A stretch of 17,274 nucleotides of DNA, from the IMG/VR virus record IMGVR_UViG_2802429232_000009, one strand, 5' to 3'. Numbering within the stretch: the stretch's first letter is position 1; every line of letters begins with the position of its first letter. Under the pieces are notes generated by a model. It was not told the origin of the DNA and did no database searches. It saw nothing but the letters and a program-made list of their open reading frames with translations. This document shows, piece by piece, positions 1-15,494 of this stretch. This stretch comes from a virus (Duplodnaviria; Heunggongvirae; Uroviricota; Caudoviricetes). Both the position numbers and the translations under genes were made by a program.

Positions 1-1152
1 CTAATTAGAACAGTCAAACCAATTGCTAATTACAGTTTCAAACTTGTGAGTAACTTGCCACCATAAATAATTTTCTAGGACAAATTGTTTTCCGTGATGG
101 GCAATACTAAGTAAATCAGGATTGTTAAGTGTTTTTTCTATATCCACAGCAATCGTTTCTGGTGTCATCGGCTCTTGCAGGTGATAGCCAGTATCTTTAT
201 CTTTTACAAATTCTATCATTCCACCTCGAGTACTCACCAGTACAGGTTTACCTGCGCTCATAGCTTCTATTGCCACCATACAAAATGGCTCCTGAAATTG
301 AGATGGAATAACAACTAAATCAGCCAAAGAATAATAGCGATGCATTTCCTCAGGAGCGACACCTCCTAACATATGGCAGTGTGAACCTAGTTGTTTTGCT
401 AATTCTCGAATTTTCTGTTGGTAAATTCCTTTTTCCCCCTTACTTTTGCTCGCATAATCCCCTATAACAACCAGTTCTATATCATCACGGGTTCTGATGA
501 GTAGTTCAAACGCCTGTAAAAGTAACATCAATCCTTTTTCAGGAGATATTCTTCCCGCATAAAATACAATCTTCTTTTCAGGGGGTATGTTCAGTTCAGA
601 ACTGTTGATTTTTACATGGTGCTTATCCGTATTATATGGATCTGTTCCATTTGGGACTATAGCGATATCTGCATCAGGAAGAAACCCCTGATAATAGTCT
701 TTTAAATAGTTACTGGGGACGAGCATTTTGACATTATCATCCATTCCTTTTGGCTCATAAGCGTTATGCATATGCATCACTATTTTTGCATGAGGTGAAC
801 GCTCACGAATCTGGCGATATAATTTCATGCTATTATGTACAACGATTACACTGTTATCCGTAATATTGAAATCGTTAGCGATATTCAAAATTCGTTGAGA
901 ATAAGGCAGGGGATCTATACGCGTCAATTTCTGAAATATGCGTTTATAAATTCGACTGAACCCGATGCGATGAATTGAGCATCGTTCACTGACAGTGGTG
1001 ATATCAGAATAACCTTCTTCTTTTATACAAACAATTCTATTCGGTATTCTTGTCATCTTAGCAACCTGATAAATCCAGGTTTCTACAGCAGCTGCGCAAC
1101 GTGGAGGAATGGAAAAAATTGGCGTAACAGTGAAAATTATTTTATCAACCAT
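1..1152 (-). CDS. Glycosyltransferase, GT-B fold, family 4-like (383 aa, complete)
   Basis: ATG at 1152..1150 preceded by an AAAGGA Shine-Dalgarno; stop TAG at 3..1. The C-terminal half carries the GT4-type EX7E region (VVIPSQFQEPFCMVAIEAMSAGKPVLVSTRGGMIEF). Markedly more AT-rich than the tail genes by eye. Specific sugar and acceptor not determinable. Confidence 0.8.
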   Translation of the reverse strand: MVDKIIFTVTPIFSIPPRCAAAVETWIYQVAKMTRIPNRIVCIKEEGYSDITTVSERCSIHRIGFSRIYKRIFQKLTRIDPLPYSQRILNIANDFNITDNSVIVVHNSMKLYRQIRERSPHAKIVMHMHNAYEPKGMDDNVKMLVPSNYLKDYYQGFLPDADIAIVPNGTDPYNTDKHHVKINSSELNIPPEKKIVFYAGRISPEKGLMLLLQAFELLIRTRDDIELVVIGDYASKSKGEKGIYQQKIRELAKQLGSHCHMLGGVAPEEMHRYYSLADLVVIPSQFQEPFCMVAIEAMSAGKPVLVSTRGGMIEFVKDKDTGYHLQEPMTPETIAVDIEKTLNNPDLLSIAHHGKQFVLENYLWWQVTHKFETVISNWFDCSN

Positions 1153-1638
1153 GACGTATTATCCTTTCTATTGTTATTTTGCGTTATTGAATTTTTATAA
1201 GCAAATGAGGAATCAGTGTATATGCATAGTATGTGAATGTTATCCTACTTAAGCCTCTATCTTTATGGTGTGCCAGCGGCAACGTGTTATCTGACTCATT
1301 TTTATTAGTGATAACCTTACTTTTCCAGAGGAGTGAGATAGTAAACACGCTGTTTCCTCGCATCGTCTATGAGGGTATCAAAAGGACAAACTATATTTGA
1401 AGTGATTTATAACGCAATATATTTATGTTTAAAAATCACTTTTTATTCTTCGCGTGAATGTTTTGTTTGGGACAATATTTTTTATAAATATGTTATAGTC
1501 TAATTCTATATAGCCAAGCGGAATAATTCTCCATTTTCGGTCAGACCTTTCGGGGTAAGGCGCAGAAGCCATTTTCTCTGTCTGACTGTGCTTGCACCGG
1601 GGAGGTGTCCGTATAGGCTATTTAGCGTATATAAGGAA

Positions 1639-1655
1639 CCGGGCATTGTGCCCGG
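1639..1655 (-). terminator. Perfect hairpin (CCGGGCA-TTG-TGCCCGG) 6 nt past the last tail-operon stop; candidate operon-end terminator
   Basis: 7-bp perfect stem with 3-nt loop read directly. On the minus-strand RNA it is followed by UUCCUUAUAU, only moderately U-rich, so termination efficiency is uncertain. Confidence 0.4.
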
Positions 1656-1661
1656 TGTGAT

Positions 1662-2117
1662 TTAAGGATGGGATTGCCAGCTACTTACTAAGGCATACAA
1701 GTGATTTGGTGAGTATCGCCAGCTATCTTTTAATTGCAGGAATTCAGCACAAAATTCACTGCAAAACAGGCGATCGCACTGTTCTTTATTGCCGGTGATA
1801 ATTCCTAAGGCTCCGCGCCAGTCGTATTTTTTGCCATCATGTTTATGGAAAAACGTTTCCACGTCCTGAAGGCAGGCCTGGAGCGGCAGCATATCCCACT
1901 TATCTGGCGGTAAAGGCATTATCTTTCCCCGAACGCCGCGATCGCGTAGTGATGCAGAGTAACAAAGGTAACTCTTTTCACCATGCTTAACGGCTAATTC
2001 ACAGTGGGAATAACTACCACGTGTCACTTTACGGGTAAACCAGTCAGCCAGTCGGGCAATACCACGGTGCTCTGTTCGGCCCTTATAACAAGCGAGCCAG
2101 ACAGTGGTTTTACTCAT
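1662..2117 (-). CDS. Hypothetical protein (151 aa), last gene of the tail operon; function unknown
   Basis: ATG at 2117..2115 overlaps the TGA of the upstream Tfa gene (ATGA overlap), implying translational coupling. Contains several Cys/His (WLACYKG, YSHCEL, CSEFCAEF) but no family I can name with confidence. Confidence 0.6.
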   Translation of the reverse strand: MSKTTVWLACYKGRTEHRGIARLADWFTRKVTRGSYSHCELAVKHGEKSYLCYSASLRDRGVRGKIMPLPPDKWDMLPLQACLQDVETFFHKHDGKKYDWRGALGIITGNKEQCDRLFCSEFCAEFLQLKDSWRYSPNHLYALVSSWQSHP

Positions 2118-2821
2118 GGTTGCCAGCCTGTGGAGTAATCGTAGTCGAGCACCGCCTGAATATCGTCCAGTGCTTCCACCGCCGCGATATGGTGCTGAGC
2201 GTTGGCGAATAAGCGCATATCGTGATCCATTGTTACCGATTCAAACTGGGCGGCGATTTCGTTGGTTAACTCGATCAGACCGTTATTTTTAGTTTTCCAC
2301 ATTAAACCTGGTGGAATTTTTTTCTCCGCTCCCATTTTTGTGAGTGAGATCTGTTGAATTCGGCTGTTTGTATCACTGTGGAAGTGATGGTCGTTGATGA
2401 TGATGTAGTTGGTTGTGATGGTATCGCGTTGATTTTTGATTGCAGAGTATTTCGCCTCTTTAGCATCGGTTATAGATGGTTGCCATTTTTCACCATCCCA
2501 ACGTTCAAAAGAACCTGATGGGGCAATGATGGTGACAGTTTCAGGTAATTGACCCAATTCTTGAATAATAAGCTGGCTACCATCAACTTTGTTATAAACA
2601 GTTTGCCCGCGATGATCTTCAATGTGCTCCCATTTTTCATTCACCCAAACAGGAGTAAAACCTGAAACCTTTTCGGGTGGTGAATTTAATGTGCAATGAT
2701 TTGGCAAACCTGTATTAGGTGCAATGTATGCATCAGACTCACCGATATATTCTTGGGTGTCTTGTGAAAAATTATAAACAGTCAGTATTTGAGCTTCATC
2801 GGAAAATGTAAAAGTATTCAT
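2114..2821 (-). CDS. Tail fiber assembly protein / chaperone (Tfa, Mu U / P2 G family), 235 aa
   Basis: Immediately downstream of the tail fiber gene with an ATGA start/stop overlap at 2818..2821. The N-terminal region has the Tfa-type pattern ([17 protein letters not shown] ... [10 protein letters not shown] ... WDGEKWQ); the C-terminal 100 aa are divergent. GAGG Shine-Dalgarno present. Confidence 0.8.
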
Positions 2822-4443
2822 GCTAGCCTCACAATATAATTGAATGCGATATTTTTAACGGTGTTTTCGGTATTGCCGGTATTATTAATGGTTATAGAGT
2901 GATTATGGGCCCCAAGTGGAATTGAATGTGAATGGGTACCAATTGAAAGTTCATGTGTATGGCTACCCAATGCGATAGTATGTGCATGGGTACCAATGGC
3001 TGTAGTATGAGAGTGATCACCTACTGCATCGGTATTAACAAAATCATAACGAGAGTCACCGATAGAATCAGCGGTTAGTGCATTGCCACCGTAATCAGCA
3101 TCACCTTTACATGTTATTTGATGTGAATGGCCACCTGTGCTGGTCGACGATTTACTTCCGTGATTGAACGACGATGTTGTCTTAGAGCCAAGATCAGAGG
3201 CAGATACCGTTTTGTTTCCAAAATCAAAAGATGATGTTGCTTTTGTCCCTAAATCCGTACTAGAAATACTGCCCGTATGGTTGTGCGATTTAACCCCATC
3301 CAGTTCAGTAGATAATATATTACGCCCACTGCTGGTTTTCCCTTTAATTATCCATCCACGCATATCAGGGATGACGCCAGACGGATATGCAATTGCCAGT
3401 TTGGGATATGAGGCTTTATTAAATGTCTGACCTGTCATCAGGGCGTAGCCAGAAGGTACAGAATCAGACGGCCAAGGAATAGGCATCCCTACAGGGCAGC
3501 TTTCCGCAGCACTAGCCTTATCATACGCCGCCTTCACCGCACTCGGCGTAGCCGCCTCCGTCGTACTGTTGCTATCCGTCGCATTACTAAGCTTCACAAT
3601 CCCTTTTTGTGTCAGGGTGCCGTCCGGAATACCCGTAATCTGCCCCCAGGGGTGTGTATGACTACCCGCAGCCTTACCGTTCGCCAGGTCATACGCCGCC
3701 TTCACCGCGCTCGGTGTCGCCGCCTCTGTCGTGCTGGTGCTATTGGTCGCATTATTAAGCTTCACAATCCCTTTTTGCGTCAGCGTACCATCCGGTATAT
3801 CAGTAATCTGACTCCAGGTATGACGATGATTTCGAGCCTCAATCATTGCCGCTTTCACCGCTTTTGGCGTAGCCGCTTTGGTTTCGTCATCACTGTCAGT
3901 GGCGTTACTTAACTGCGTAAAGCCTTTTTGCGATAACGTAGCATCAGGGTGATTAGTCGAACGTTCATGTTCATCCAGTTGCGAATCAACATAATCCCGT
4001 GTTGCCAGCACAATACTGGGATCAACGGTGAGCGTTACCGCTGCCGTATTGGAAACTTCCATAATGAGACGAATGCAAACTTGCTTACCGCTGCCGCCGG
4101 GTAATAGCGGTTTATACGACTCCGGGAATTTACCGATAGCAATGAGTTCACCATCGGTATCAAAAACACCGACTTCACGTACATACCAGCCGCCGATATT
4201 TTCTGGCAGTACAAGTTCCGCAATTAACCAGTTAGGATTATTAGGCGCAACTGTTAATGTATTTAAATCACCGCGCCATACTTCATGGCGTAATTTAGTT
4301 TGGCTGACGGTGGGTTCATAATATTGCCCTCCGCTGTCGCCAACAGCCATTTTTTGTAGATGAAGCTGTTTTTTATCCGCCAGGGCATTGGCAATTTTTG
4401 CCATCCCTCTGTCAGTGAGTAGAGTATAAAACTCATTATCCAT
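2818..4443 (-). CDS. Tail fiber protein (541 aa): P2 gpH / Mu S-like N-terminus, tandem repeats, His-x-His-rich C-terminal tip
   Basis: The N-terminal block ([21 protein letters not shown] ... [29 protein letters not shown] ... ATPKAVKAA) is the conserved tail-fiber N-terminal domain of P2/Mu/lambda-type fibers. Three copies of the TLTQKG-x-VKLSNAT...[13 protein letters not shown] repeat follow. The C-terminus has six HxH motifs (HSH, HSH, HAH, HTH, HSH, HNH). GGAG Shine-Dalgarno; ATG at 4443. Confidence 0.9.
3514..3945 (-). repeat. In-frame tandem direct repeats of about 168 bp (56 codons) inside the tail fiber gene; two well-conserved copies plus one degenerate copy
   Basis: The 20-mer tcatacgccgccttcaccgc occurs at 3521 and again at 3690 (period about 168 bp), with long near-identical tracts between them. 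The third, degenerate copy is around 3846..3945. Confidence 0.8.
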
Positions 4444-4445
4444 AA

Positions 4446-5078
4446 TTACTCCGGGTAAATATATGTAATTTCAAGGCTCCATTGCCCTGCTCCGTAATAG
4501 ATTGATGTGTTTTGCTGTACTTCCCGTATCTGGAAAGGTAAAACCGTCGTCAGTTCACCACCATAAAGCGCACAGCCAATAACAGGAATAGCACTTTGGT
4601 TAATGATCCAGACGATTAATGCTTCCAGTTTTGAACGTGTATTTTTATATTCATGAATGAGTTCTACCAGATTATTGAAAAGGTTTTCATCCATGCCTTT
4701 ATCCACCAGCTCTATATCAACCTTAAAAAAATAAGCCTTTCCCTCATATTCAAACCATTCTGAAATAGTTCCTGGTAGAGAAAGTATTTCCAGTACCCGC
4801 CGTACCGCCCAAATCGTTCCTTTATATTTATGCAGCTCAATGGCTTGCTTAATTAACTCTCGCTTCTCCCGTTCATCAGTGGTAAATAACCAACCTTCCA
4901 GCCCCTGAACGTGAAATTGTTCTGCAAGGGCAGGTAATGCCGAAGCATCAACTAGGTCTACCAGATAAACCATCAACGCCGTCAGATCGAGTTGGGCAAA
5001 ACGCTCGGCGGCGATATTTGCCAGAGTTGAAAAACGCTCATCGCTGGCAAGCGGCGGTGGCGGCAGCAATTTATCCAT
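4446..5078 (-). CDS. Baseplate/tail protein, P2 gpI / Mu gp48-like (about 210 aa)
   Basis: Position between the gpJ-like and tail fiber genes. I prefer the ATG at 5078..5076 (GGAG Shine-Dalgarno 9 nt upstream; overlaps the TAA of the upstream gene) over the TTG at 5093 used in the ORF track. Confidence 0.75.
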
Positions 5079-6186
5079 CGCTGACTCCGGCAATCGTGAC
5101 GTCTATCGCGGTGCATTCCGCCCACTCATGCGCCTGCAAAATACGTTTTGTGGGCATGTTCAGCACAACGTCATAGACGCCATCGACCTGCAATACTTTG
5201 ATTATCTGGTTTGGCACAATGTCCTGTCCCAGATGTGTCTGCCGCTGTTGCGTCCAGAGGCTAATCGCTTTACGCGCCGCAGCCAGCGTTGTCTCCTGAT
5301 CGGCAGTGGTAAACAGTGTGAGCTGCGCACGGATCTCATACGGCACCCTAACGGCGCATTTCGCACTTACTTTGTCGGTCAGCGGACGTTTTTTCTCCTT
5401 ACTAACCTCCAGTTCAATTTGCGCGAGCAGTTCCACGCCCGGCAGACCATTCAGCGTTAGCGGGTAGATCTCCACGCAGCCTTCTGGTAATCCTTCGTCC
5501 GGCCCCAGGACCGCAACGTCAATAATCGACTGGCTTACGGAAAGCGTATGAAAGCGGTAGGCACCATAGCTACCCGCATTACTGAAACTTTCCGGCGCCA
5601 GTTGGATCCGTTGGCGCAGTGCGTCATCACTCTCTTCACCGCAGCCGCCCGTTGAAGCAGTCAGGTTGGTTACGTTGATATCGTAATAACCAATCCTGTC
5701 AACAAGGGCGCTAATTTGTGCAGGCTGCCAGCCATTGCCCGCTTCGCCTGTTGTCAGACTGGTGGCGGGAACGGCGATATGCAAACTTCCCGCCGGAATC
5801 AGAACATCTTCATCGGTAGCAAACATCACGCTGTCAGAGGCGCTGGCTCGTGTTCCTTGGGGGATCAGGATGTTGCTTGTATACGCATTGACTACCGAAA
5901 ACTGCAACGTCGTTTTTGCTGGCTGCGCAGGTAAGCGGTGAACGCCCACCAGTTCCCCTAAATAATCCAGCATTGGCGCGCGGGAATACGCGACCAGGTT
6001 CTGTTTCGCCGCTTCCTGAATGGCGATGCGTACAAGGTTTTCACGATAGGCAAAAAGGTCAATCAGCAACCGCTCGGCCTGTGCCGGGTAGAGCTTTTTG
6101 CCGCTGGCATCTTCGTACTGCGCAATCATCTCGCTGGTAATTTGCGCAGGATCGCGGTCAATAAAATTGGGTTCGGCTATCGCCAT
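5071..6186 (-). CDS. Baseplate wedge protein, P2 gpJ / Mu gp47-like (371 aa)
   Basis: Size and synteny (gpW-like, gpJ-like, gpI-like, fiber). GGAGGTG Shine-Dalgarno; 10-nt overlap with the upstream gpW-like gene. Confidence 0.85.
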   Translation of the reverse strand: MAIAEPNFIDRDPAQITSEMIAQYEDASGKKLYPAQAERLLIDLFAYRENLVRIAIQEAAKQNLVAYSRAPMLDYLGELVGVHRLPAQPAKTTLQFSVVNAYTSNILIPQGTRASASDSVMFATDEDVLIPAGSLHIAVPATSLTTGEAGNGWQPAQISALVDRIGYYDINVTNLTASTGGCGEESDDALRQRIQLAPESFSNAGSYGAYRFHTLSVSQSIIDVAVLGPDEGLPEGCVEIYPLTLNGLPGVELLAQIELEVSKEKKRPLTDKVSAKCAVRVPYEIRAQLTLFTTADQETTLAAARKAISLWTQQRQTHLGQDIVPNQIIKVLQVDGVYDVVLNMPTKRILQAHEWAECTAIDVTIAGVSDG

Positions 6187-6536
6187 AACACCTCCGTTGA
6201 GTTGATTACGCCGTCAGCGGTGCGCCATTGCACACGTAACGTCAGATGTTCCCCGTCGATTACCGGTGTCACCTTCAGCAACCGGCAGCGCGCTTCCCAC
6301 TGGCGAATGGCCTCTACCGACTCCCGTACCACATGCGGGATCGCCCGCTCGATGGGATAATCGATGTAGTGCCACAAGTTGCTACCAAACAGCGGTCTGT
6401 GGGGATCACTGCCGCGCGGTGTGCGCAGAATGATGTGTATTGCCTGGTGAATATCATCCAGTCCGCAGACGTATTCTTCAGGCCGCTGCAAGGCGGGTTG
6501 CCAGTGCAGCGTAGAGGGGCGTGTTTTCGTGTTCAT
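6177..6536 (-). CDS. Baseplate protein, P2 gpW / T4 gp25 / Mu gp46-like (119 aa)
   Basis: Motif LDDIHQAIHIILRTPRGSDPHRPLFGSNLWHYIDYP matches the conserved gpW/gp25 core. Weak Shine-Dalgarno. Preceded by a 98-bp gap containing a terminator. Confidence 0.8.
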   Translation of the reverse strand: MNTKTRPSTLHWQPALQRPEEYVCGLDDIHQAIHIILRTPRGSDPHRPLFGSNLWHYIDYPIERAIPHVVRESVEAIRQWEARCRLLKVTPVIDGEHLTLRVQWRTADGVINSTEVLWR

Positions 6537-6597
6537 GAGGGCATTTTCGCCCTGAACAGGCGGAGGAGATATTAAAGCGGTTTAGAAAACTGGTTGA

Positions 6598-6629
6598 TTA
6601 AAAAGAGAAAACCCGCCATCAGGCGGGTT
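6598..6629 (-). terminator. Intrinsic (rho-independent) terminator for leftward transcription, inside the tail operon
   Basis: Perfect 8-bp GC-rich stem (6610..6617 pairs with 6622..6629) and 4-nt loop, followed on the minus-strand RNA by UUCUCUUUUU. Starts 6 nt after the spike gene stop (6635). Not a terminator on the plus strand. Confidence 0.65.
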
Positions 6630-6634
6630 AAAAG

Positions 6635-7336
6635 TCAGTGTGAATGGTGGTTGGAGTTGCCACCGCTGTCCTGCAATGTGCCGCTGGCCTGCACGTTACC
6701 AATCACGTTGACATTGCCGGTTATCGTGGCGGCATTACCGATGCCTCCACTTCCTGCCATGCCACCCAGCCAGGTCAGTTTTTTCATCACCGTTACGTTG
6801 CCGGTAAAGGTACTGAGCGGTGCGTCTACCGTTACAGTCATCGCTTTAACATCCACCTTACTGGCTTCAATGCTGACATCGGTGGCTTTCACATCAACAG
6901 TGTCGGAAGTCACGGTGACGTGTTGGGCTTTAACCTCAACGTTGGGCGATGTCAGGCGGGTACGGTCGATAACCTCAATCACGATTTTTTCAATGCCGCC
7001 ATTAATCGTAAGCTGGTGGGTGCTGCGGTCATATTCAAACGCTGCGCCATCGGAAAACTGGACATACCTTTTATCGCGCGATGCTACTGGCGCGGTATCT
7101 ACCGTTGAATATACTGCGCCCAGCACTACTCCATCTTCACCGTTATCATCCAGCAGAACTTCCACCTGCTCTCCCATATCCGGTAGCCAGTAGTCTTTAT
7201 TGTCCTGAGAATTGCGCTGCAGCACCGCAAGCCAGTTACTCTTCAGATTGTCACACTCTGGTAGCGTGACCCGCACCCGAACGCTGGTTTCGTCAATATC
7301 ACTGATAATCCCCGTTTGCCGGGTTACTCCTTTCAT
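6635..7336 (-). CDS. Baseplate central spike, P2 gpV / Mu gp45-like (233 aa)
   Basis: Strong AAGGAGG Shine-Dalgarno. N-terminal OB-fold-like region and repetitive beta-rich C-terminal half (VTV/VDV repeats) ending in a His cluster (NSNHHSH). Position after the gpD-like gene. Confidence 0.8.
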   Translation of the reverse strand: MKGVTRQTGIISDIDETSVRVRVTLPECDNLKSNWLAVLQRNSQDNKDYWLPDMGEQVEVLLDDNGEDGVVLGAVYSTVDTAPVASRDKRYVQFSDGAAFEYDRSTHQLTINGGIEKIVIEVIDRTRLTSPNVEVKAQHVTVTSDTVDVKATDVSIEASKVDVKAMTVTVDAPLSTFTGNVTVMKKLTWLGGMAGSGGIGNAATITGNVNVIGNVQASGTLQDSGGNSNHHSH

Positions 7337-7345
7337 ATTGCCTCC

Positions 7346-8386
7346 TTACTGGCTGGTCGCTGGCCCGCGTGAAACGTCGATCTCAGTGGTATAGCCGCTG
7401 CGCACAAAACTGTGAGTAGATTTATCAATCAGCCACTGACCGGAAAGCACACCAAAATCGGTTAGCTCGATTTTATTGCCTGCCGTCAGTTCCGGGCAGC
7501 CCATCATCCTGAGCGTTCCGGTTTGTTGGTATTCGTTGTGGCTGTCGAGCGCGGCGTTGGCCTTTGCTTGTGCCGCGCCAACGTCCGGCGCCCGACTGTT
7601 CAGTTTTAGCGTGTCGGCACTGGTGCCGACTCCACGGGCAGACGGCTTTTGCTGGCTGTCGTGAGTGTAGATAACCAGTTCTTTTTTCTTACTATTTTGA
7701 TGCTGTACGGTGGCGTTTTTGTAGATACGGTTAATGGTATCTTTGAAGGTGAAATGCGAAACGTCTTTGCGGTCGATCTTTTTCACCGGCGCCAGGCAGC
7801 GCAGCGTGGGTAAATGCGAAAAAATCAGCTCTTTGGTGGTCACCTTTAGCGCATAGCCATATTCGCTGGCCAGGCGCTTGATAAATCCAACATCGGTTTC
7901 GCCGTACTGTGTTACCCGGTCAATTGTCAGAGGCTCGATTTTGCCCACCAGCGTCAGGCCGTGAGTTTGCGCGATACGGCTGGCGATGGCTGAAAGCGTT
8001 GTCTCTTCAAAGCCCTGACTATTACGGGTGCGCAGCGCCTGATTGACGGAAGTGGCGATGCCATCAATATTTACCGTGGAAGGTGGTGCTGAAATATCAA
8101 TTTTATCAATGATATATTGACCACAATCGAGCAGTTTTTCCCCCTGATAACCCATGTGCAGCGCCAGCGTATCGCCTTTGCCGGGATACCACTCTTTTAT
8201 CCAGCGTCCATCGGTGTCATCCAGTGTAATCGCGATGGTATCCGACTCGTTTTTAATACTGTCGTGATAACTGATACTGGTGACATAGGGCGTGATGTCA
8301 TAAGTGATATCTTTATGCCCATACCAGAGGGTAAAAATGGGCGCGAGCGTGGCAAAGACGCCGCCAGTTACGCTTATCTCAGCCAT
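7346..8386 (-). CDS. Tail/baseplate hub protein, P2 gpD / Mu P (gp44)-like (346 aa)
   Basis: Size and synteny (gpU-like, gpX-like, gpD-like, gpV-like). GGAG Shine-Dalgarno; start overlaps the end of the gpX-like gene by 13 nt. Confidence 0.8.
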   Translation of the reverse strand: MAEISVTGGVFATLAPIFTLWYGHKDITYDITPYVTSISYHDSIKNESDTIAITLDDTDGRWIKEWYPGKGDTLALHMGYQGEKLLDCGQYIIDKIDISAPPSTVNIDGIATSVNQALRTRNSQGFEETTLSAIASRIAQTHGLTLVGKIEPLTIDRVTQYGETDVGFIKRLASEYGYALKVTTKELIFSHLPTLRCLAPVKKIDRKDVSHFTFKDTINRIYKNATVQHQNSKKKELVIYTHDSQQKPSARGVGTSADTLKLNSRAPDVGAAQAKANAALDSHNEYQQTGTLRMMGCPELTAGNKIELTDFGVLSGQWLIDKSTHSFVRSGYTTEIDVSRGPATSQ

Positions 8387-8583
8387 GGTGGGATCTCCGA
8401 TACGGTTTTGTTGACGGAAATGACTGGAATAATGAGCTGAATACCGGAAGGCAGTACCGGATAAATGGCGACATGTGGATTGGCGGCGATAATGCGTTCG
8501 TAAGCCAGTGCATCACCGTAGTAATGCCATGCCAGATTATCCCAGCGTTCGCCGTCGGTGGTGATATGTTCAAGGTATCGCAT
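8374..8583 (-). CDS. Small tail protein, P2 gpX-like (LysM-like fold), 69 aa
   Basis: GAGGAG Shine-Dalgarno. TAATG stop/start overlap with the upstream gene at 8583..8585. Motif YGD..AYERIIAANPHVAIYPVLPSGIQLIIP resembles tail protein X. Sits between the gpU-like and gpD-like genes as in R-type tailocin loci. Confidence 0.65.
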   Translation of the reverse strand: MRYLEHITTDGERWDNLAWHYYGDALAYERIIAANPHVAIYPVLPSGIQLIIPVISVNKTVSEIPPWLR

Positions 8584-9536
8584 TACCAGCTCCTCGTAAT
8601 GGTCGCGGCAGCAAGCCGAGTCACTGCGGGAATGGTTTGCTGTACCGTTGTACGTGCCTGCTCAACCAACGTTGTGGCTTTATCGAAAGTTGCTTCGGCG
8701 ATGTCGCTGGTAATGTCGTCAAAAAGCGCCTGTGCATGGTCAACCAGTGTCCCGGCGTCTTCGGCACAGTCGCGGATGCCCGGCATGTTACCTAGCAATG
8801 CTTTAATCTGCGCCGACAACGCTTTTGGTAATCCTGCCAGCGTTTGCAGATCCATCGGCTGTTTAAACAGGGTTTCGATGGCATCGATAGTCTTTTTCAA
8901 CGACGTAATTATCTTTTCACACTTTTCTTTTAACGCTTTGGCCTCTTTAATCAGTGCTTTGATCTTTGCCACTGTTTTTTTAATATCTTCAATGGATTGC
9001 GCCAGTTCATCGAGCATCTCTTTGGCTTTGCGCATACCTTCTTCAATGGTGTTCAATATCTGATCCAACCAAGACTCCACCTTGTCCGGAAAATCGCTCG
9101 CCTTTTCGTCAATATTAGGCTCCTGGGTGGTAATCGCCGGGGGCAGGAGTGGGTTTTTCGGATCGCCGGTATACTCCTGGAGCGACATTGTTCCGCTTTG
9201 GGCAATGATATTGCCCCAGGGATCGGTGTGCTGGTGAGTGGCGGTTAACTCTGTAATTACAAACCAGCCGCGATAATCACCGTTGCCAAACACCAGCGCC
9301 ATTGCTTTGTGGGCGAGCATGGCTTCACGCAGTCGATTCAGCTCTGTTGTGGGTTGGCAAAACTGGCTGTGCAGGGAAAATTCCAGCGCCAGCATGTCCA
9401 GCTTATCGCCAATAAACTGCACGCCAGGTTTGCCTTCAATACGGGCATGTGTGGCGTAATCCACGCCCATTGTGCTTTTAAAGCCATCCCAGAATGTGAC
9501 AACTTTAAATTCAATCTCACCTAAAACGGCATACAT
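8583..9536 (-). CDS. Tail protein at the Mu N position with a gpU-like N-terminal domain and a long K/E-rich coiled-coil C-terminal extension (317 aa)
   Basis: ATGA overlap with the tape measure stop at 9536..9538. The first 110 aa or so (EGKPGVQFIGDKLDMLALEFSL ... GNGDYRGWFVITEL) resemble the P2 gpU tail-terminator family; the remainder is predicted alpha-helical. Confidence 0.65.
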   Translation of the reverse strand: MYAVLGEIEFKVVTFWDGFKSTMGVDYATHARIEGKPGVQFIGDKLDMLALEFSLHSQFCQPTTELNRLREAMLAHKAMALVFGNGDYRGWFVITELTATHQHTDPWGNIIAQSGTMSLQEYTGDPKNPLLPPAITTQEPNIDEKASDFPDKVESWLDQILNTIEEGMRKAKEMLDELAQSIEDIKKTVAKIKALIKEAKALKEKCEKIITSLKKTIDAIETLFKQPMDLQTLAGLPKALSAQIKALLGNMPGIRDCAEDAGTLVDHAQALFDDITSDIAEATFDKATTLVEQARTTVQQTIPAVTRLAAATITRSW

Positions 9537-11905
9537 CAGGCATACCCCCGGCGCTGTTGCTGCGCCATTACGTCGTTAATCATTCTTTCCAGTTCGCGTT
9601 TACTCATCGTCAACACGTTCTGAATGTCTTTAGTGGTGTTTTGTCCGTTACTCTGCACGGTAATTTGTGGCGAAAAATTCACCTGGACTTTTCCCAGGGA
9701 ACGGGAGGGTAGCGTCGCCGGTTTGGTTACGGATTTACCAGGTAAAGAGGCCGACGCGGGTTTTGCCGCTGGCGCCGATGACGGCGTAGCCGTTTTGCTG
9801 GATGGCGCGAGTTGTTTGCCCACAGGCGGCGTTAAAAGCGCACCGGCAACGCCTGGAACAACGGTCGCGGGGGAGACTGATGCGGTATTAGTCGTGCCTG
9901 TAACAGCCGCAGCCGATGCTTCTGTGCTGATCCCCATTGTGGCTTTTAGCCAGTCTGGCATGGCGTTTTTGACCTGATCAATAATGCTTTTCAGAGCGGG
10001 GAAAGCATTCATTATGCCGTCGGCCAGACTACCCAGTATATTGCTGCCGAACTCGCTAAAACTCGCAGGCATCTCAACACCAAACCAATTCATCACATCG
10101 GAAAAGGCGCTGTAAAACAGCCCCAGTGGCGACCAGTCGAGAATCAACCGGCTAATACCAGCAATGCCGCCATCAAAGGCCGTGGTGATACGTTGCCAGA
10201 TGGCGGAAAATAACCTGGATATAGGTGCCCAGTTGCGATAAATCAGATAAGCCGCGCCCGCAATCGCAGTGATGACCAGACCAATGGGATTCATCAGTAG
10301 CACCCGACCTAGCGAGAGAACGGTTCGACCAACCAGTTTCAATGCTCCGATCAGGCCACGACCAAGCAGTTGCGTTAGCCATTTTGCGCCGCCACCCAAT
10401 GACTTAACCGCCGATAGCACCTTACTTGCCGTGCCTCCGAGCGCCAGACTTGCCCTCACTTTCAGGAAGATATCGACCAGACGAATAAACGGCGAGGCGA
10501 TGAAGTTCGCGCCCAGCTTTAAAACATTCAGCGCACCGTTAAACAGCCAAATCGCCCCGACGATTTTCGCAATGTTTTGCACCAGCGCCGGATGTTCGCG
10601 TAGCCAGGCGCTGAACTGGCGAATAACCGGCGCAAGGCTTTGCGCCAGCTCGCCAATCGCCGGCATAAGTTGTAAGCCAATGCTGAGCCATAAATCATTT
10701 AACGCCAGTTGTAACGCTTTAGTCTGTTCAATGGGCGAGGCCATTTGCGCAGAAAAGTCAGCGTTAATCAGATTCTTGCTGGTGGCTTGCATGGCAGAGG
10801 CTTTTAGCTGGCGATATTCCTCCATATTCGCCAACATAGGAGCCAGAAATTCCACCGTTTGCGCATCGCCGAACATTTCGCCCAGATTAAATTGCGTCAC
10901 CATCGATTGCAGCGCAGTGCTGCGGGCAGATAAATCTTCAATCTGCATGGTGCGTTTGAAGGTATCGAGGATCGCCGGATTCATCTTCTCAAGCTGCATT
11001 TGCACGATATGAGTCATAGCTTCGCTAACACCCATACCGTTTTGCTGATGCTCAAGCAGAGAACCTTGCAGATCGACCCCCTGGCTGGCGAACCAGCTAT
11101 CGGTTTTTTTCGAAAAGGTGGTTTGCAGAAAATGAGCGAAATTTTCCGTCGCCGCACTGGCGCTGGCACCGTTTTTCATGGCGATCTGCATGGTGGCGGC
11201 CAGTTCAGCCATACCTTCCAGACCCTGAGCGCCGGTTTTACCTGCAAATTTCTCTATCCACTGCGTTTGTTCGGTAATGGCAGGCCCACCGCTTTTGGTA
11301 ACGCTGTACATCATGTTTTGCGCAGCGTGGAAATTTTCTGGGGCAATATTCAGTCGATCATGAGTCGCGAGCGCGGCTTTCGCCCATGTTTCGGCGCTGT
11401 CGCGCGTGGCGGTGGCGGCTTTGGCGATCTCCGGCATATAGCGGTTGAGATCCTGCAAGGACGATATGTTGCCTTCAACTAAGGTCAGAGCGGCGGACTG
11501 TAACGTGGTCTGCTGCTGGTTAAAATCCATACTCCAGTCGCGCAGATTAAGGCTGAGCGTCTCGCGGGTGGCATCACTCATCCCGCCTTTGGTCGCCATA
11601 TTGACCATATTGACCATATTGTCCTGAAACTCATACGGCAACTTCCAGTCGGGGGCTTCAACATTAAATACTTTGCTAAATTGCCCGGCAAATGTTTGGG
11701 TTTTCTCCATCAGATTAGCGCGGCTGCGGCTATTTTCCTCCAGGCGGAGAGCGGAATTGGCAAGCCGCTGCGTTAGTTTGATAACTGTCGCTTGCTGAGT
11801 AGAGAGAGTTAACAATGTTCTGGCGTTGAGTGAGCCGTAACGGGCTATTGCCTGCGTCAACGTCTCATTACGCGCCTGAAGCTGGGTAATAATATCGTTG
11901 GCCAA
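9536..11905 (-). CDS. Tail tape measure protein (789 aa)
   Basis: Largest ORF, directly after the chaperone gene. Long helical N-terminal part, a central hydrophobic glycine-rich segment, and a Pro/Ala/Ser/Thr-rich tract near the C-terminus. The only available start is TTG at 11905 (in-frame TAA 15 nt upstream; AAAGAG Shine-Dalgarno-like motif). Confidence 0.85.
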   Translation of the reverse strand: MANDIITQLQARNETLTQAIARYGSLNARTLLTLSTQQATVIKLTQRLANSALRLEENSRSRANLMEKTQTFAGQFSKVFNVEAPDWKLPYEFQDNMVNMVNMATKGGMSDATRETLSLNLRDWSMDFNQQQTTLQSAALTLVEGNISSLQDLNRYMPEIAKAATATRDSAETWAKAALATHDRLNIAPENFHAAQNMMYSVTKSGGPAITEQTQWIEKFAGKTGAQGLEGMAELAATMQIAMKNGASASAATENFAHFLQTTFSKKTDSWFASQGVDLQGSLLEHQQNGMGVSEAMTHIVQMQLEKMNPAILDTFKRTMQIEDLSARSTALQSMVTQFNLGEMFGDAQTVEFLAPMLANMEEYRQLKASAMQATSKNLINADFSAQMASPIEQTKALQLALNDLWLSIGLQLMPAIGELAQSLAPVIRQFSAWLREHPALVQNIAKIVGAIWLFNGALNVLKLGANFIASPFIRLVDIFLKVRASLALGGTASKVLSAVKSLGGGAKWLTQLLGRGLIGALKLVGRTVLSLGRVLLMNPIGLVITAIAGAAYLIYRNWAPISRLFSAIWQRITTAFDGGIAGISRLILDWSPLGLFYSAFSDVMNWFGVEMPASFSEFGSNILGSLADGIMNAFPALKSIIDQVKNAMPDWLKATMGISTEASAAAVTGTTNTASVSPATVVPGVAGALLTPPVGKQLAPSSKTATPSSAPAAKPASASLPGKSVTKPATLPSRSLGKVQVNFSPQITVQSNGQNTTKDIQNVLTMSKRELERMINDVMAQQQRRGYA
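11596..11621 (-). repeat. Short in-frame tandem repeat (9-bp unit ccatattga, about 2.9 copies) inside the tape measure gene
   Basis: Read directly: gccatattgaccatattgaccatattgtcc. It encodes the duplicated tripeptide in DNMVNMVNMA. Confidence 0.7.
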
Positions 11906-12094
11906 AATTGTTTCTCTTTAAATATTGATAATGGCCCGCTGGTTATTTTTCTAAAAAAAGGGGCAGGGAAGAAATAAACCTGACGGGCTTGGGAAACTCG
12001 CAGACATCAGGTCTGCGAGCCATATTCGATTTTTATTTGGGCGTTGGCTTCATCCAGCCAGTTGCTAAAGTCATCGACGGTAAGGGCGTCTATC

Positions 12095-12412
12095 TCACTG
12101 GGCGGAAAGCGAAACCATCTCGCCAGTAGCGCCATTGCCTGCCATAGCAGGGGAGGATTCTGTAACCACGCTAAGCATAGATTGAAATCGTTTCTGCAAT
12201 GCCTGGTAATCCAGCAAATCCATTTCAGCTAAATCTTCTGGCACCAGTCCGGTCATTGCAGCCATTAGCGGTTCATCCCACTCTTCTGGTTTTTCGCTGA
12301 TCCGGCGGGCGTTGCGCATATCTTTTACTTTCAGGCGACGTAATTGCAGAGTGTTAATTACGTCTCCCGCCGCTGAAGTAAACGGGAACTGTAAGATATA
12401 ATGTTCTTTCAT
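12095..12412 (-). CDS. Tail assembly chaperone (P2 gpE / Mu gp41 / lambda gpG-equivalent position), 105 aa
   Basis: Small acidic ORF between the tube and tape measure genes. AAGGA Shine-Dalgarno. An overlapping alternative-frame ORF extends 3-prime of it (see findings). Confidence 0.7.
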   Translation of the reverse strand: MKEHYILQFPFTSAAGDVINTLQLRRLKVKDMRNARRISEKPEEWDEPLMAAMTGLVPEDLAEMDLLDYQALQKRFQSMLSVVTESSPAMAGNGATGEMVSLSAQ

Positions 12413-12439
12413 TTTGTATCCTTATTTATCATGCGGAAA

Positions 12440-12457
12440 TCGGGGCCGTAGCCCCGA
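12440..12457 (-). terminator. Hairpin between the tube and chaperone genes; possible attenuator or mRNA-stabilising stem-loop
   Basis: 7-bp perfect stem (TCGGGGC/GCCCCGA) with 4-nt loop in the 50-bp gap downstream of the tube stop. Followed on the minus-strand RNA by UUUCC only, so at most a weak terminator. Confidence 0.35.
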
Positions 12458-12462
12458 ATAAC

Positions 12463-12987
12463 TTAGCCACCGATGTTATTGCGATAGGTACTTAATTGAT
12501 CCACGCCGTTAACGCGGAAAATATTCGCCAGGTAATCCAGCTCCAGCAGTGTTTCACCATCGACCACCTGTTTAATATAGGTACAACCAAAGGCGCTGCT
12601 GAATTCCGGGTTTTCATTTTGTTTAAATGTTCCCAGTGGATTCTTTTTAAACATAACAGTCAAATGAGTGACTAACGCTAATTGATTCGCTTTCCCCTGG
12701 GAGTTATAGCAATCAATACTGGAGCGGCACTGTAATGCTACCGCCTGCCACGGGTTTGCCGTTTTACGCATGACGTCCTGATAAAAGGAGTTCCATTTAA
12801 TTTCCCCTTCCAGTTTATCGAAACCTGCCGGGAGCTCGATTTTACCGACCATGCCCAGTGCTTTATGCTCCTGCATAATTAAACTGACATCCGGTAATTT
12901 AATTTCGGTTGCACGACCTAACAGGTTATTACCATCGAGATAAATATTGGCATTGGTAATACGGTTAATTTGAATTTTTCCAGCCAT
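12463..12987 (-). CDS. Tail tube protein (P2 FII / Mu M-like), 174 aa
   Basis: Directly follows the sheath gene with a TAATG stop/start overlap at 12985..12989. GGAGAG Shine-Dalgarno. Size and position typical of contractile-tail tube proteins. Confidence 0.85.
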   Translation of the reverse strand: MAGKIQINRITNANIYLDGNNLLGRATEIKLPDVSLIMQEHKALGMVGKIELPAGFDKLEGEIKWNSFYQDVMRKTANPWQAVALQCRSSIDCYNSQGKANQLALVTHLTVMFKKNPLGTFKQNENPEFSSAFGCTYIKQVVDGETLLELDYLANIFRVNGVDQLSTYRNNIGG

Positions 12988-14411
12988 TAGCTATTGCTCT
13001 CCAGAGAGACTAAATATTCAGAAGTAATTTCAGTTTCAAACGTCAGACGTTCCAGCGGCGGTGGCGGGGTGAATTTATAGCTCAGCAATAAATGCCCGGC
13101 GCTGAGTTCGGTCGGTGAATTTCGCGCCGGATCGTACCAGCACTCAAAGCCAAGCAGTGCGCCGTCGGCAATCAGCTTACGGCCCCAGGTATTTACCGAC
13201 TCGGTCAGGGCATCAATTAGCGCCTGATTAATCGGCATATCGATATACTGCTGGCTGAAATAGCGGATCGACTCGTTAATCACATCGCCCGTGCGGCGAA
13301 CGTTTTCAAAGTTACGCATATGGGTCACGGTAGGCCATGCCGCAGTGCGGTTGCCCCATAAACGCAGACCAGAGCCGTAACTATTGAAAACTGTGGTAAT
13401 GCCGTTTTCGTTGAGCTGATTCACTTCACTTTGCGGGTCATCAACCATTGCGGAAAGTGAACGTTCGATACCGATAATGCCCTGAATTTCCTGGTTTGAG
13501 TTACTCCACCAGAAACCTTTCTCCAGGTCTACTTTGGCACGCAGTCCGGCAGCGCGTGAAGAGAGCGGTTCGAGAACTTCCTGGTTGGTTGAGCCGTCAT
13601 AAACTTTGACGTGCGGATAGCATAAACGCGCACGGTCAGAACTGGTGTTGAAGTTGATTGCGCCTTTCGAGCCGCGACCAGCCAGCACCTGCTGGAATGT
13701 AGTACCGATTGGGGCGTCAATGTAGGCGATAGCACCGAGTTTGTCCGCCTGAGCAATCAGCTCTGTGGTGACCGATTTTTGCGTACAGAAAACCGGAGCA
13801 AGCAGGATTTTGGCGTAGAAACCATACAGATTATAGGTGTCCTGTAGCAGTTTCATCCCCGTGCGATCGCCTGCGGTATTAACGGCGCCAATAATATCGG
13901 CTGCGGTAACTTTTGTTGGATCGGCCCATGAGTAATAGGCGCAAACTTTCGCTCCGGCAGGGATCTCAGTTTCTGCACGAGTGATTATTCCTGTTTGTTC
14001 ATCAACATGAAACGCTGTGCTGCTATACGTGGTGGCTGATGTTGAAGAGGGTTTCAGGACAACATTACGCACCGCACTATGAGCCAGTTTCGCCTGGTTG
14101 TTGGAATCAAAAGTGATACTCTCATTGCTGATGCTGGAGCCATGTTTTACCGGGTCCAGTACGTTAATCACCACCACCGTACCAGCGCCGTGGTCGTAAA
14201 TCGCCTTCAGCGCCTGCGGGATCGTAAAGTTAGCCTGAGTCGAGCCAAACTGCGCGGCATCGCTTTCAGAAAGGCACAATGTTGGTTTGTTTACCGGACC
14301 GCATGGTGCACTACCGATTAAAGCGATTACAGCGGATTTTACCGCTTTAACCGGGCGCGGACCGGTTTCAATTTCAATGGTTTCGACACCGTGCAGGTAA
14401 TTAGCTGCCAT
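12987..14411 (-). CDS. Tail sheath protein (Mu L / P2 FI-like), about 474 aa
   Basis: Large ORF immediately upstream of the tube gene. I prefer the ATG at 14411..14409 (GGAGAGG Shine-Dalgarno 8 nt upstream; overlaps the TAA of the preceding ORF) over the TTG at 14417 in the ORF track. Confidence 0.9.
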   Translation of the reverse strand: MAANYLHGVETIEIETGPRPVKAVKSAVIALIGSAPCGPVNKPTLCLSESDAAQFGSTQANFTIPQALKAIYDHGAGTVVVINVLDPVKHGSSISNESITFDSNNQAKLAHSAVRNVVLKPSSTSATTYSSTAFHVDEQTGIITRAETEIPAGAKVCAYYSWADPTKVTAADIIGAVNTAGDRTGMKLLQDTYNLYGFYAKILLAPVFCTQKSVTTELIAQADKLGAIAYIDAPIGTTFQQVLAGRGSKGAINFNTSSDRARLCYPHVKVYDGSTNQEVLEPLSSRAAGLRAKVDLEKGFWWSNSNQEIQGIIGIERSLSAMVDDPQSEVNQLNENGITTVFNSYGSGLRLWGNRTAAWPTVTHMRNFENVRRTGDVINESIRYFSQQYIDMPINQALIDALTESVNTWGRKLIADGALLGFECWYDPARNSPTELSAGHLLLSYKFTPPPPLERLTFETEITSEYLVSLESNS

Positions 14412-14598
14412 GTACAATTTCCTCTCCGGTATTTTGTTCTTCCTGAGTGATGACGGGAGTCAGATGATTGCGGGCAATCATGGTCATGACCCACTCGTTG
14501 TCTTCTGGCAGATCAATTTCACTGTTCGGCCACAATAAGATTTCTTGTCCGTCGGCAAGGGTGACGCCGCTTGCCGGGCCGTTGTAGATATATTTCAT
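14401..14598 (-). CDS. Small phage protein (65 aa), Mu gp38-like position; probable tail completion / neck-proximal protein
   Basis: ATGA overlap with the upstream ORF at 14595..14598. GAGGAA Shine-Dalgarno. Acidic. Position directly before the sheath gene. Confidence 0.55.
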   Translation of the reverse strand: MKYIYNGPASGVTLADGQEILLWPNSEIDLPEDNEWVMTMIARNHLTPVITQEEQNTGEEIVHGS

Positions 14599-15050
14599 TC
14601 AGTTTCCTCGTAATTAACTTCAGTAAGCAGGGTAAGGTCCGCGCTTTCCCGTTTCGCGATAAACAGCGAGCTGGTCGCCATTTCCAGGATGTAGCGGCAG
14701 AAACCACCGCTCTCGCCTGCATTGATTTCTTTTTCAAGCCAAAGAAGACGCTCGCAATCAGGAAGCTGGATCCCTCCCAGTGCGCTGCGTATGCGATCCA
14801 GTGCGTTTAACGCGTCACAATTTTTGCCAACAATAACGGTGGCAGTTAAGCGGAGCGTTTGCTGTTGCACGAGAGCATCACTGCTTTCAGGCATGGCAAA
14901 TAGAGAACCGCTATAATTAATAATTACTGTAACTTGCTGTGTCTGTGGAATATATTTCTGGGCATCGACCGATGAAATAAATACGTCCATTTCGGGATTC
15001 TGTTCACGTAATCTGGTCACAACAGAATTCATTACAGATAAAATTTCCAT
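14595..15050 (-). CDS. Phage protein (151 aa), Mu gp37-like; probable tail completion / sheath-initiator protein
   Basis: AAGGA Shine-Dalgarno. Position between the lysis cassette and the sheath gene, where Mu-like phages encode tail-completion proteins. Family assignment from memory only. Confidence 0.55.
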   Translation of the reverse strand: MEILSVMNSVVTRLREQNPEMDVFISSVDAQKYIPQTQQVTVIINYSGSLFAMPESSDALVQQQTLRLTATVIVGKNCDALNALDRIRSALGGIQLPDCERLLWLEKEINAGESGGFCRYILEMATSSLFIAKRESADLTLLTEVNYEETE

Positions 15051-15167
15051 ATAGGGTGTTCCTTAATTATTGCTGATTCGTTAACGCTTACTCCGTTATC
15101 GTTGAAATGTATTCTGACGTAGTGAAGGTGAAGGATCTTTTAATCTGCTTTAGAGAAAAAATTGAAT

Positions 15168-15482
15168 TTAATAGCTGCCACGTTGTAATAGCTCTATTTT
15201 GCTATATAAGGCATCCAGCTTTGCTTCTAATACTGCCTGGCCACGAAGATAATCTTCTCTGCGGACATAATGCAGCGGAAGCTCGGCACGAAATTCGAGA
15301 AATTCTCTTTCCAGTTTCGACCAATTTGTTTCTGATTCCCGGCGTGCGTTTTCCAGAGATTCAAAACGCTCATTAAGTCTTTTTTCAATTTGTGCTAACA
15401 GCAATTTTCCGGCAGCAAACATTAATCCAACGAAGGAAAGCATAAGGGAGATCACTTCCCAAAAATCGATACTGAGTTTCAT
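15168..15482 (-). CDS. Lysis accessory membrane protein (104 aa): N-terminal TM helix plus coiled coil; i-spanin-like or Mu gp25 (releasin)-like
   Basis: GAGGAG Shine-Dalgarno 5 nt upstream. One hydrophobic segment (VISLMLSFVGLMFAAGKLLLA) followed by a charged helical region. Located directly after the lytic transglycosylase gene. Confidence 0.55.
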   Translation of the reverse strand: MKLSIDFWEVISLMLSFVGLMFAAGKLLLAQIEKRLNERFESLENARRESETNWSKLEREFLEFRAELPLHYVRREDYLRGQAVLEAKLDALYSKIELLQRGSY

Positions 15483-15494
15483 CGGCTCCTCTGT

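Follow-up and report, generated by a model that had tools for sequence, protein, structure and literature searches.

The tail fiber encoded at positions 2818-4443 (minus strand) of IMG/VR virus record IMGVR_UViG_2802429232_000009, a stretch of 17,274 nucleotides that we analyzed whole and refer to as the window, is very likely the receptor-binding fiber of a contractile tail of Mu gene order and P2-like type, composed of three exchangeable modules and probably used by a tailocin. The open reading frame (ORF) is intact and spans exactly these positions, where an earlier note made from the DNA alone had placed a fiber; its 541-residue product, with the stop codon at 2818-2820, is identical to WP_105280721.1 (unclassified Escherichia). 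The ORF list and Pfam (PF12571, three matches to PF03406, and PF07484) divide the protein into a P2 gpH-type anchor, three Phage_fiber_2 repeats, a collar and a needle tip. The gene closes the series of structural genes in a tail-only cluster. The core of the earlier note's reading proved right, its observations being confirmed in part and its interpretation supported in part.

The fiber tip is a homolog of T4 gp37

Sequence comparison identifies the C-terminal 232 residues as a true homolog of the T4 gp37 and lambda Stf tip family, which goes beyond mere resemblance. In a phmmer search against the PDB, residues 310-541 match 2XGF, the crystal structure of the T4 gp37 tip, over chain positions 23-242 with an E-value of 3.6e-71, and in a multiple alignment the tip is 60% identical to T4 gp37 over 232 residues; the earlier note's gp37-like tip with His-x-His (HxH) motifs is thus on firmer ground than was claimed for it. 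In T4 gp37, the collar D10 comprises residues 811-881 and 1010-1026, and the needle D11 comprises a stem (882-931 and 960-1009) and a tip (932-959) (PMC6957217). By these limits, fiber residues 315-385 (3289-3501; this and all parts of the gene given below lie on the minus strand) are the collar, equivalent to T4 811-881, and hold the PF07484 match (residues 319-365, E = 1.5e-10) ahead of the needle. Residues 386-524 (2872-3288) align with T4 882-1009 as the needle, made up of an ascending strand (386-441), a distal tip (442-470; 3034-3120) and a descending strand (471-524), and residues 525-541 (2821-2871) are the C-terminal strand that returns to the collar. Identity to T4 gp37 is 75% in the collar, 58% in the ascending stem, 25% in the distal tip, 50% in the descending stem and 100% in the last 17 residues (17 of 17, T4 1010-1026); this last strand is invariant in the multiple alignment and present in nearly all gp37-type homologs. 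Tips of the gp37 type are present in 464 phage records, among T4-like phages, lambdoid Stf proteins and P2-like phages.

The fiber contains nine HxH motifs against 0.93 expected, a number that none of 20,000 shuffles reached. Two of the nine lie in linkers between repeats (residues 206 and 262) and seven in the tip (residues 387, 439, 477, 486, 495, 504 and 513). The last five form a run of G-x-H-x-H motifs in 9-residue steps (residues 477-515; 2899-3015), picked up by Tandem Repeats Finder as a 27-nucleotide period at 2905-2996. Even spacing is limited to these five, and the six evenly spaced motifs described earlier are therefore approximately right. T4 gp37 has HxH motifs at residues 883, 915, 929, 966, 980, 989 and 998, seven in all, matching the seven axial iron atoms of its tip (PMC6957217). 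Six of these seven positions are kept in the fiber, and a new HxH at 486/488, where the descending strand has a net gain of 4 residues, brings the total to seven again. By analogy with T4, the seven motifs per chain are predicted to make up seven octahedral metal sites, probably occupied by iron, on the axis of a trimer in which the collar would lead into a long needle and each chain would run up to a small distal tip and back.

In the ascending strand, 20 residues are imperfectly duplicated in tandem (398-417 and 418-437; 3133-3252), 10 of them identical. With this duplication on the upward strand and an extra G-x-H-x-H motif on the downward one, the two strands come to 56 and 54 residues, longer than the 50 and 50 of T4, which predicts a needle slightly longer than that of T4. 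The match between the two changes looks like a coordinated lengthening relative to T4.

The T4 residues that are critical by mutagenesis (N937, G938, G940, S947 and Y949) or that bind OmpC (K945 and Y953) are mostly substituted in the fiber. We propose that the poorly conserved distal tip at residues 442-470 most likely sets receptor specificity and, by analogy, that the fiber would recognize a porin of the outer membrane (OmpC, for example), the lipopolysaccharide core or both, probably not with T4's exact specificity.

A P2-type anchor and a shaft of variable length

The N-terminal end of the fiber is a baseplate-anchor domain of the P2 gpH type (residues 1-150; 3994-4443), which the Pfam family Phage_tail_fib (PF12571; Phage_tail_fib / DUF3751) matches over its full length with an E-value of 3.9e-61; P2 gpH itself is about 50% identical to residues 25-300. 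The genes immediately upstream encode the baseplate wedge proteins gpI (PF09684) and gpJ (PF04865), as expected for a fiber of this type. The earlier note had described a P2 gpH/Mu S-type N-terminus, and while the P2 part of that description holds, we reject the Mu part because Mu S (5YVQ, 8JU3) aligns to residues 165-217 alone, that is, to repeat 1 and not to the N-terminal domain. Mu S, at this one repeat, was the sole match of a PDB sequence search with the N-terminal 315 residues, in which residues 1-164 had no significant match.

Behind the anchor, residues 167-309 (3517-3945) form a shaft of three Phage_fiber_2 repeats, recognized by PF03406 (a repeat of about 40 residues) in three stretches with an E-value of 2.8e-53, by a hidden Markov model (HMM) of the repeat and by a repeat pair in the DNA. 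Copy 1 lies at 3793-3945, copy 2 at 3625-3792 and copy 3 at 3517-3624. The repeats start at residues 167, 218 and 274, which gives spacings of 51 and then 56 residues; the three tandem repeats noted earlier are thus present, while the uniform 56-residue period attributed to them applies to copies 2 and 3 only. The best DNA repeat pair (3521-3661 against 3689-3829) is 84% identical over 141 nucleotides with a longest exact run of 22, so that the description of two copies as near-identical over more than 100 base pairs was overstated, and the DNA of copy 1 is about 50% identical to that of copies 2 and 3.

The related claim that copy number is prone to change is borne out by homologs, in which the repeat HMM counts one to four copies. 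Among alleles with the N-terminus found in the window, there are three copies in the window, Superficieibacter and Dryocola, and four in E. coli Res13 and Phytobacter; adjacent copies in Res13 have exact runs of 35-50 nucleotides in common. This range of copy numbers, together with the exact runs in Res13, argues that unequal recombination evidently alters the number of shaft repeats, though the copies in the window now share only 22 nucleotides of perfect identity. Similarity of the tip to gp37 and variation in repeat number, whose absence the earlier note said would count against it, are both found.

In the linkers between the repeats of the 56-residue type, residues 205-217 (3793-3830) and 261-273 (3625-3662) each contain H-x-H-x-W-x-Q-I-T, with HxH at residues 206-208 and 262-264. 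Close homologs have one such linker HxH after every repeat, and P2-like fibers with a 44-residue repeat spacing have none. These linker motifs may provide the shaft with further metal sites.

Exchange of modules between fiber, baseplate and chaperone

Directly downstream of the fiber lies the gene for its assembly chaperone Tfa (235 residues; 2114-2821, minus strand), which has two domains of different affinity. Residues 1-118 (2468-2821) are a lambda-Tfa/T4-gp38-like N-terminal domain (Pfam PF28596, Caudo_TAP_N), 42% identical to the N-terminal half of lambda-type Tfa and 25% to T4 gp38; the Tfa of lambdoid phages matches over residues 3-145. Residues 119-235 (2114-2467) are a DUF4376 domain (PF14301, E = 2.8e-14), unlike the C-terminal domain of lambda- and P2-type Tfa; AlphaFold2 (AF2) models this DUF4376 domain as a helix/beta-hairpin fold with a predicted local distance difference test (pLDDT) score of 94. 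A PDB sequence search with Tfa gave chance matches only (E of 0.17 or more).

The earlier note had observed a divergent C-terminal half in Tfa and taken it as consistent with a swapped tip/chaperone pair, which implies a model in which this half is the part exchanged with the tip and sets its specificity. The divergence is real, since DUF4376 does replace the canonical C-domain of lambda- and P2-type Tfa, yet the half of Tfa that travels with the tip is, as judged from the alleles compared here, the N-terminal one, and we consider exchange through the C-half highly improbable. DUF4376 stays 90-96% identical to that of the Res13 allele and is 93-97% identical between E. coli alleles whose tip and Tfa N-domain differ (gp37-type against glycine-rich tip), while Tfa residues 1 to about 132 swap with the tip. 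In the loci that we fetched, which were collected by patterns taken from this fiber itself and lack phylogenetic independence, a lambda-like Tfa N-domain follows gp37-type tips in 35 of 39 distinct cases and other tips in none of five. Tips of the gp37 type co-occur with either the canonical C-domain or DUF4376, DUF4376 is found with at least three unrelated N-domains, and the E. coli protein P0014 joins the N-domain seen here (91% identity) to a C-terminus that is not DUF4376. According to the published model of Tfa, binding to the fiber tip falls to the variable N-domain, and multimerization is driven by the conserved C-domain, which in Mu-like systems is DUF4376 (PMC9608196, PMC7882524). 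Tfa thus appears to fit the modular assembly-protein model (North et al. 2019), with an N-domain matched to the tip type and putatively in contact with it, and a DUF4376 domain that would be the lineage-constant part for oligomerization and assembly.

Comparison of four alleles at the same locus, from the window and from E. coli Res13, GF130 and ST648, shows where the modules break. Res13 resembles the window over gpI and fiber nucleotides 1-930 (80-100%) and again over Tfa from residue ~132 and the following 151-residue ORF (about 81-96%), and is unrelated in between: in place of the exchanged cassette, fiber residues 310-541 plus Tfa residues 1 to ~132, Res13 has a glycine-rich tip and another Tfa N-domain, and its shaft has four repeats. 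GF130 presents the converse, being 93-98% identical in everything from fiber residue 310 on and only 55-86% in the C-terminal half of gpI (about 4446-4740) and fiber residues 1-309. In ST648, the collar, the last ~30 residues of the fiber and Tfa are alike, and fiber residues ~401-508, the needle, are replaced wholesale. The gpI-like baseplate protein (4446-5078, minus strand; PF09684, E = 2.4e-34) follows the anchor: its identity to GF130 falls from ~95% to 55-73% at ~4740, whereas its identity to Res13 stays at 91-100%. This co-variation of the gpI C-half (4446-4740) with the fiber N-terminal allele suggests that the C-half is the docking partner of the anchor domain.

From these comparisons the locus can be divided into an anchor module, made of the C-half of gpI with the N-terminus and repeats of the fiber; a tip/chaperone module, which takes in the collar, the needle and the N-domain of Tfa; and, within the latter, a needle segment that is exchangeable by itself. 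The junction at fiber residue ~309/310, the end of the last repeat, is seen against two E. coli alleles and is a recurrent crossover point; the 3' boundary of the needle segment falls inside the G-x-H-x-H array. We take these motifs to be the 'His boxes' of T-even adhesins, which Tetart et al. in 1998 reportedly proposed as recombination sites. An invertible alternative tip in the style of Mu or P1 was considered and rejected, as the ORF list has neither an invertase gene nor a second tip/Tfa set downstream.

A conserved tail-only cluster at lysC-yjbD

The fiber belongs to a tail-only cluster at 1662-17274, on the minus strand except for a Mor-family activator on the plus strand (16927-17274), which we delimited from ORFs, the RefSeq annotation of the E. 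coli ortholog, Pfam, PHROGs and dN/dS (the ratio of nonsynonymous to synonymous substitution rates). Its order is Mor-family activator, divergent holin, SLT endolysin, lipoprotein, a Mu-Gp37-family protein, a 65-residue protein, sheath, tube, chaperone, tape measure, gpU/N-like protein, X, D, V, W, J, I, fiber, Tfa and the 151-residue ORF. The cluster thus brings its own lysis cassette (holin, SLT endolysin and lipoprotein) and a divergently oriented activator, and among its ORFs neither the ORF list nor Pfam nor PHROGs reveals capsid, terminase, portal, integrase or transposase, repressor or replication genes. In the flanks of the source genome, read from GCA_002965005.1 (contig PTRD01000020.1), lysC follows 54 nucleotides past Mor and a glycosyltransferase and then yjbD stand at the other end; in E. 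coli the cluster likewise lies between lysC and yjbD/rluF.

From position 1639 on, the window is ~91% identical to a chromosomal cluster in 203 of 5,426 complete E. coli genomes (~4%). Compared with E. coli, the source genome shows 90.8% identity in the host flank yjbD-rluF and 90-92% in the cluster. All 20 cluster genes are intact, and dN/dS against the E. coli ortholog is 0.00-0.39 at dS of 0.05-0.7, a mark of purifying selection. Divergence equal to that of the host flanks, together with intact genes and low dN/dS, points to a vertically inherited and functionally maintained tail-only element, and the cluster is a plausible candidate R-type tailocin. Because the cluster, fixed at lysC-yjbD, lacks head genes and keeps both a Mor-family activator and lysis genes, the fiber most likely serves an R-type tailocin, and not an infectious phage, in recognizing its target. 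More tentatively, and with somewhat less than an even chance in our estimate, we suggest that the cluster is a functional, vertically inherited Escherichia R-type tailocin under Mor control, apparently undescribed, whose killing spectrum is reprogrammed by cassette exchange. The literature yielded no description of the lysC-yjbD cluster or of particle production from it, in a search whose coverage of subscription journals was thin.

These same surroundings bear on the idea that the fiber serves an intact, inducible temperate phage of the P2 or Mu kind, as the earlier note implied in speaking of induced lysates. The tail, lysis and Mor genes are phage-derived, and close relatives of the fiber occur in real phages (Chuche, STYP1, SEN1 and Peduovirus P24A7b). 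The cluster, however, is hemmed in by lysC on one side and by the glycosyltransferase and yjbD on the opposite one; its lysis genes are directly followed by the Gp37-family and sheath genes, where terminase, portal and capsid genes are missing along with any transposase, integrase or repressor; and the same arrangement recurs in about 200 E. coli genomes. A complete temperate phage is, in our judgment, the least credible of the explanations considered.

The explanation of the fiber favored here must also be weighed against observations that speak against it. At the tip, the T4 iron site at 915/917 is degraded to a single histidine, and the placement of GGHSH(439) in the ascending strand is ambiguous, since MAFFT sets it on T4 915-917 and HMMER and local alignment on T4 929-931; we rejected the MAFFT placement and preferred the other because it keeps the ascending and descending strands matched in length (56 and 54 residues; 50 and 50 in T4). 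The pairing of tip and Tfa is not absolute, as an unrelated ORF of 287-300 residues stands behind four gp37-type tips from other genera, and the ascertainment of the paired loci described above tells in the same direction. Finally, the cluster is damaged in some E. coli strains, by ISEc53 and ISVsa5 insertions and by an IS1-associated deletion that removes the genes from sheath through gpI. The cluster is therefore dispensable, and the element is being lost in some lineages. E. coli GTEN_24 is among the strains with an insertion sequence or a deletion in the cluster.

Such damage would also suit an inert prophage remnant, in which the fiber is a molecular fossil that is neither expressed nor assembled any longer and its mosaicism a trace of past phage recombination. 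The lack of integrase, replication and head genes, the restriction of the cluster to only ~4% of complete E. coli genomes and the silence of the literature on particle production fit this explanation as well. A fossil would nonetheless be hard to reconcile with a window in which 20 of 20 ORFs are intact and under constraint, with synteny and position kept across Escherichia species at the divergence of the host flanks, with a regulator and lysis cassette that have been retained, and with fiber and chaperone cassettes that have been swapped as matched functional pairs. We therefore regard the remnant as unlikely, though a less distant prospect than an intact phage, and continue to favor the fiber of a probable tailocin.

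The surroundings of the cluster offer several further observations. At its end in the window, the stretch made up of 1-1152 (minus strand) and 1153-1661 holds a GT4 glycosyltransferase (Pfam Glycos_transf_1, also GT4-conflict); E. coli has a slipin and a nucleotidyltransferase gene where the source has the glycosyltransferase, and the stretch 1-1661 had no megablast match among complete E. coli genomes. This end is a variable cargo slot, which may harbor genes for defense or surface modification. The 151-residue ORF (1662-2117, minus strand) overlaps the Tfa stop codon, is conserved in all fiber-allele types and has a dN/dS of 0.06; it matches phrog_1128 ('enoyl-CoA hydratase/carnithine racemase-like') and has no Pfam hit. 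The gpV-like central spike protein (6635-7336, minus strand) terminates in ...GGNSNHHSH, a His-rich apex that recalls the spike tip of P2 gpV with its bound iron; if this likeness is true, both spike and fiber needle may hold metal coordinated by histidines. The host flank of the source genome also contains a chromosomal toxin-antitoxin pair, ccdA/ccdB, in the interval from rluF to pepE (15918-16528 of that locus). An Rfam scan of the whole window gave zero matches, and a promoter and terminator scan of 1-5200 found nothing above shuffle expectation with bearing on the fiber.

Relation to known fibers and tailocins

This fiber and T4 gp37 both run from a collar through an ascending strand, a tip and a descending strand to a C-terminal strand, and in both a gp38-related chaperone domain is encoded directly downstream. 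The differences lie around this shared core: T4 has an 800-residue gp37 shaft where a 300-residue P2-type anchor and repeat shaft stand here, the needle strands here are 4-6 residues longer and have lost the 915/917 site, and the chaperone, unlike T4 gp38, has a DUF4376 C-domain. The cluster ORFs, moreover, included no identifiable gene of the gp57A type.

Lambda Stf resembles the fiber in having Phage_fiber_2 repeats followed by a gp37-type tip, at ~50-58% identity to window fiber residues 167-541 and 307-541, and in a fiber gene followed by that of Tfa, the stop codon of the one abutting or overlapping the start codon of the other. HHpred is reported to place the lambda Stf C-terminus close to the tip of gp37 (95.2% probability), and the fibers of lambda (Stf) and T4 reportedly can replace each other in function, with OmpC bound by both (PMC7291167). 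Stf, however, is a siphovirus fiber with a different N-terminus, its needle segment differs in the number and spacing of HxH motifs (the descending run in lambda is 14, 9, 9, 9), and its Tfa has the canonical helical C-domain instead of DUF4376. Some P2-like fibers, such as those of Peduovirus P24A7b, the Salmonella phages STYP1 and SEN1 and the Escherichia phage Chuche, have the mosaic seen here: a P2 N-terminus is joined through Phage_fiber_2 repeats to a gp37-type tip, the Tfa N-domain is lambda-like, and the match extends over the full length at 48-54% identity. They differ in their 44-residue repeat spacing, the lack of HxH linkers, the number of repeats and a Tfa with the canonical C-domain, and they belong to complete phages. 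The existence of such full-length P2-type relatives (Chuche, STYP1 and SEN1), together with gp37-type tips in so many phage records, makes this mosaic one of a known kind.

The chaperone finds its parallels in Mu S/U and in the H-fiber of Campylobacter CJIE1, which likewise have a modular chaperone with a variable, tip-binding N-domain and a conserved multimerization/assembly C-domain; a DUF4376-containing chaperone was required for fiber function in a fusion onto R2 pyocin (PMC7882524, PMC9608196). The cluster also has its tail gene order in common with Mu. The Mu S tip, by contrast, is structurally unrelated to gp37, Mu S has a single repeat in common with this fiber, and among the window ORFs we saw neither an invertible G-segment nor a second S'/U' set such as Mu possesses.

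As a whole, the cluster resembles R-type tailocins (R2 pyocin, kosakonicin and the Mu-derived tailocins of Pseudomonas) in that tail and lysis genes, without a head, occupy a constant place in the chromosome, and in combining a conserved sheath and tube and a conserved fiber N-terminus with a variable C-terminus and chaperone (PMC6629978). This candidate tailocin differs from them in its Mor-family regulator. The 'tailocin' of E. coli ST131 (PMC9205054) was considered as the same element and rejected, since it has P2/R2-pyocin gene order as opposed to the Mu-like order here. At about 5200-13800 of Serratia microhaemolytica NZ_SBEF01000040.1, at least five fiber-like ORFs stand in tandem, two of them followed by a DUF4376 chaperone and one having a gp37-type tip, a multi-fiber layout that resembles the one reported for kosakonicin.

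Implications

We propose that the three modules would divide the work of the fiber as follows. The P2 gpH-type anchor would attach the fiber to the baseplate as an allele that moves with the gpI C-half, the run of Phage_fiber_2 repeats would form a shaft whose copy number changes by unequal recombination, and the collar and needle would form the receptor-binding tip. Folding would begin at the C-terminus of the fiber with the aid of the downstream Tfa. If the cluster is a functional tailocin, its killing spectrum would be reprogrammed in nature through the exchange of three matched cassettes (gpI C-half with anchor, tip with Tfa N-domain, and the needle segment alone), by crossovers at conserved junctions, namely the end of the repeats and the G-x-H-x-H boxes.

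Taken by itself, the fiber is an ordinary further case of long-known mosaicism, in which T4-like, lambdoid and P2-like phages have gp37-type tips in common, and the conserved tail-only cluster is the more interesting lead. The locus nevertheless provides a clean natural data set on where fiber modules break and, since the Tfa N-domain travels with the tip, suggests that those who retarget phages or tailocins should move the tip together with Tfa residues 1 to ~130. If the tailocin is active, a minority of E. coli and related species would carry a chromosomal weapon with naturally swappable specificity cassettes, which would bear on strain competition in the gut and on engineered narrow-spectrum antibacterials. 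In that case, the fiber described here would represent one of the alleles by which E. coli and related species naturally discriminate between strains.

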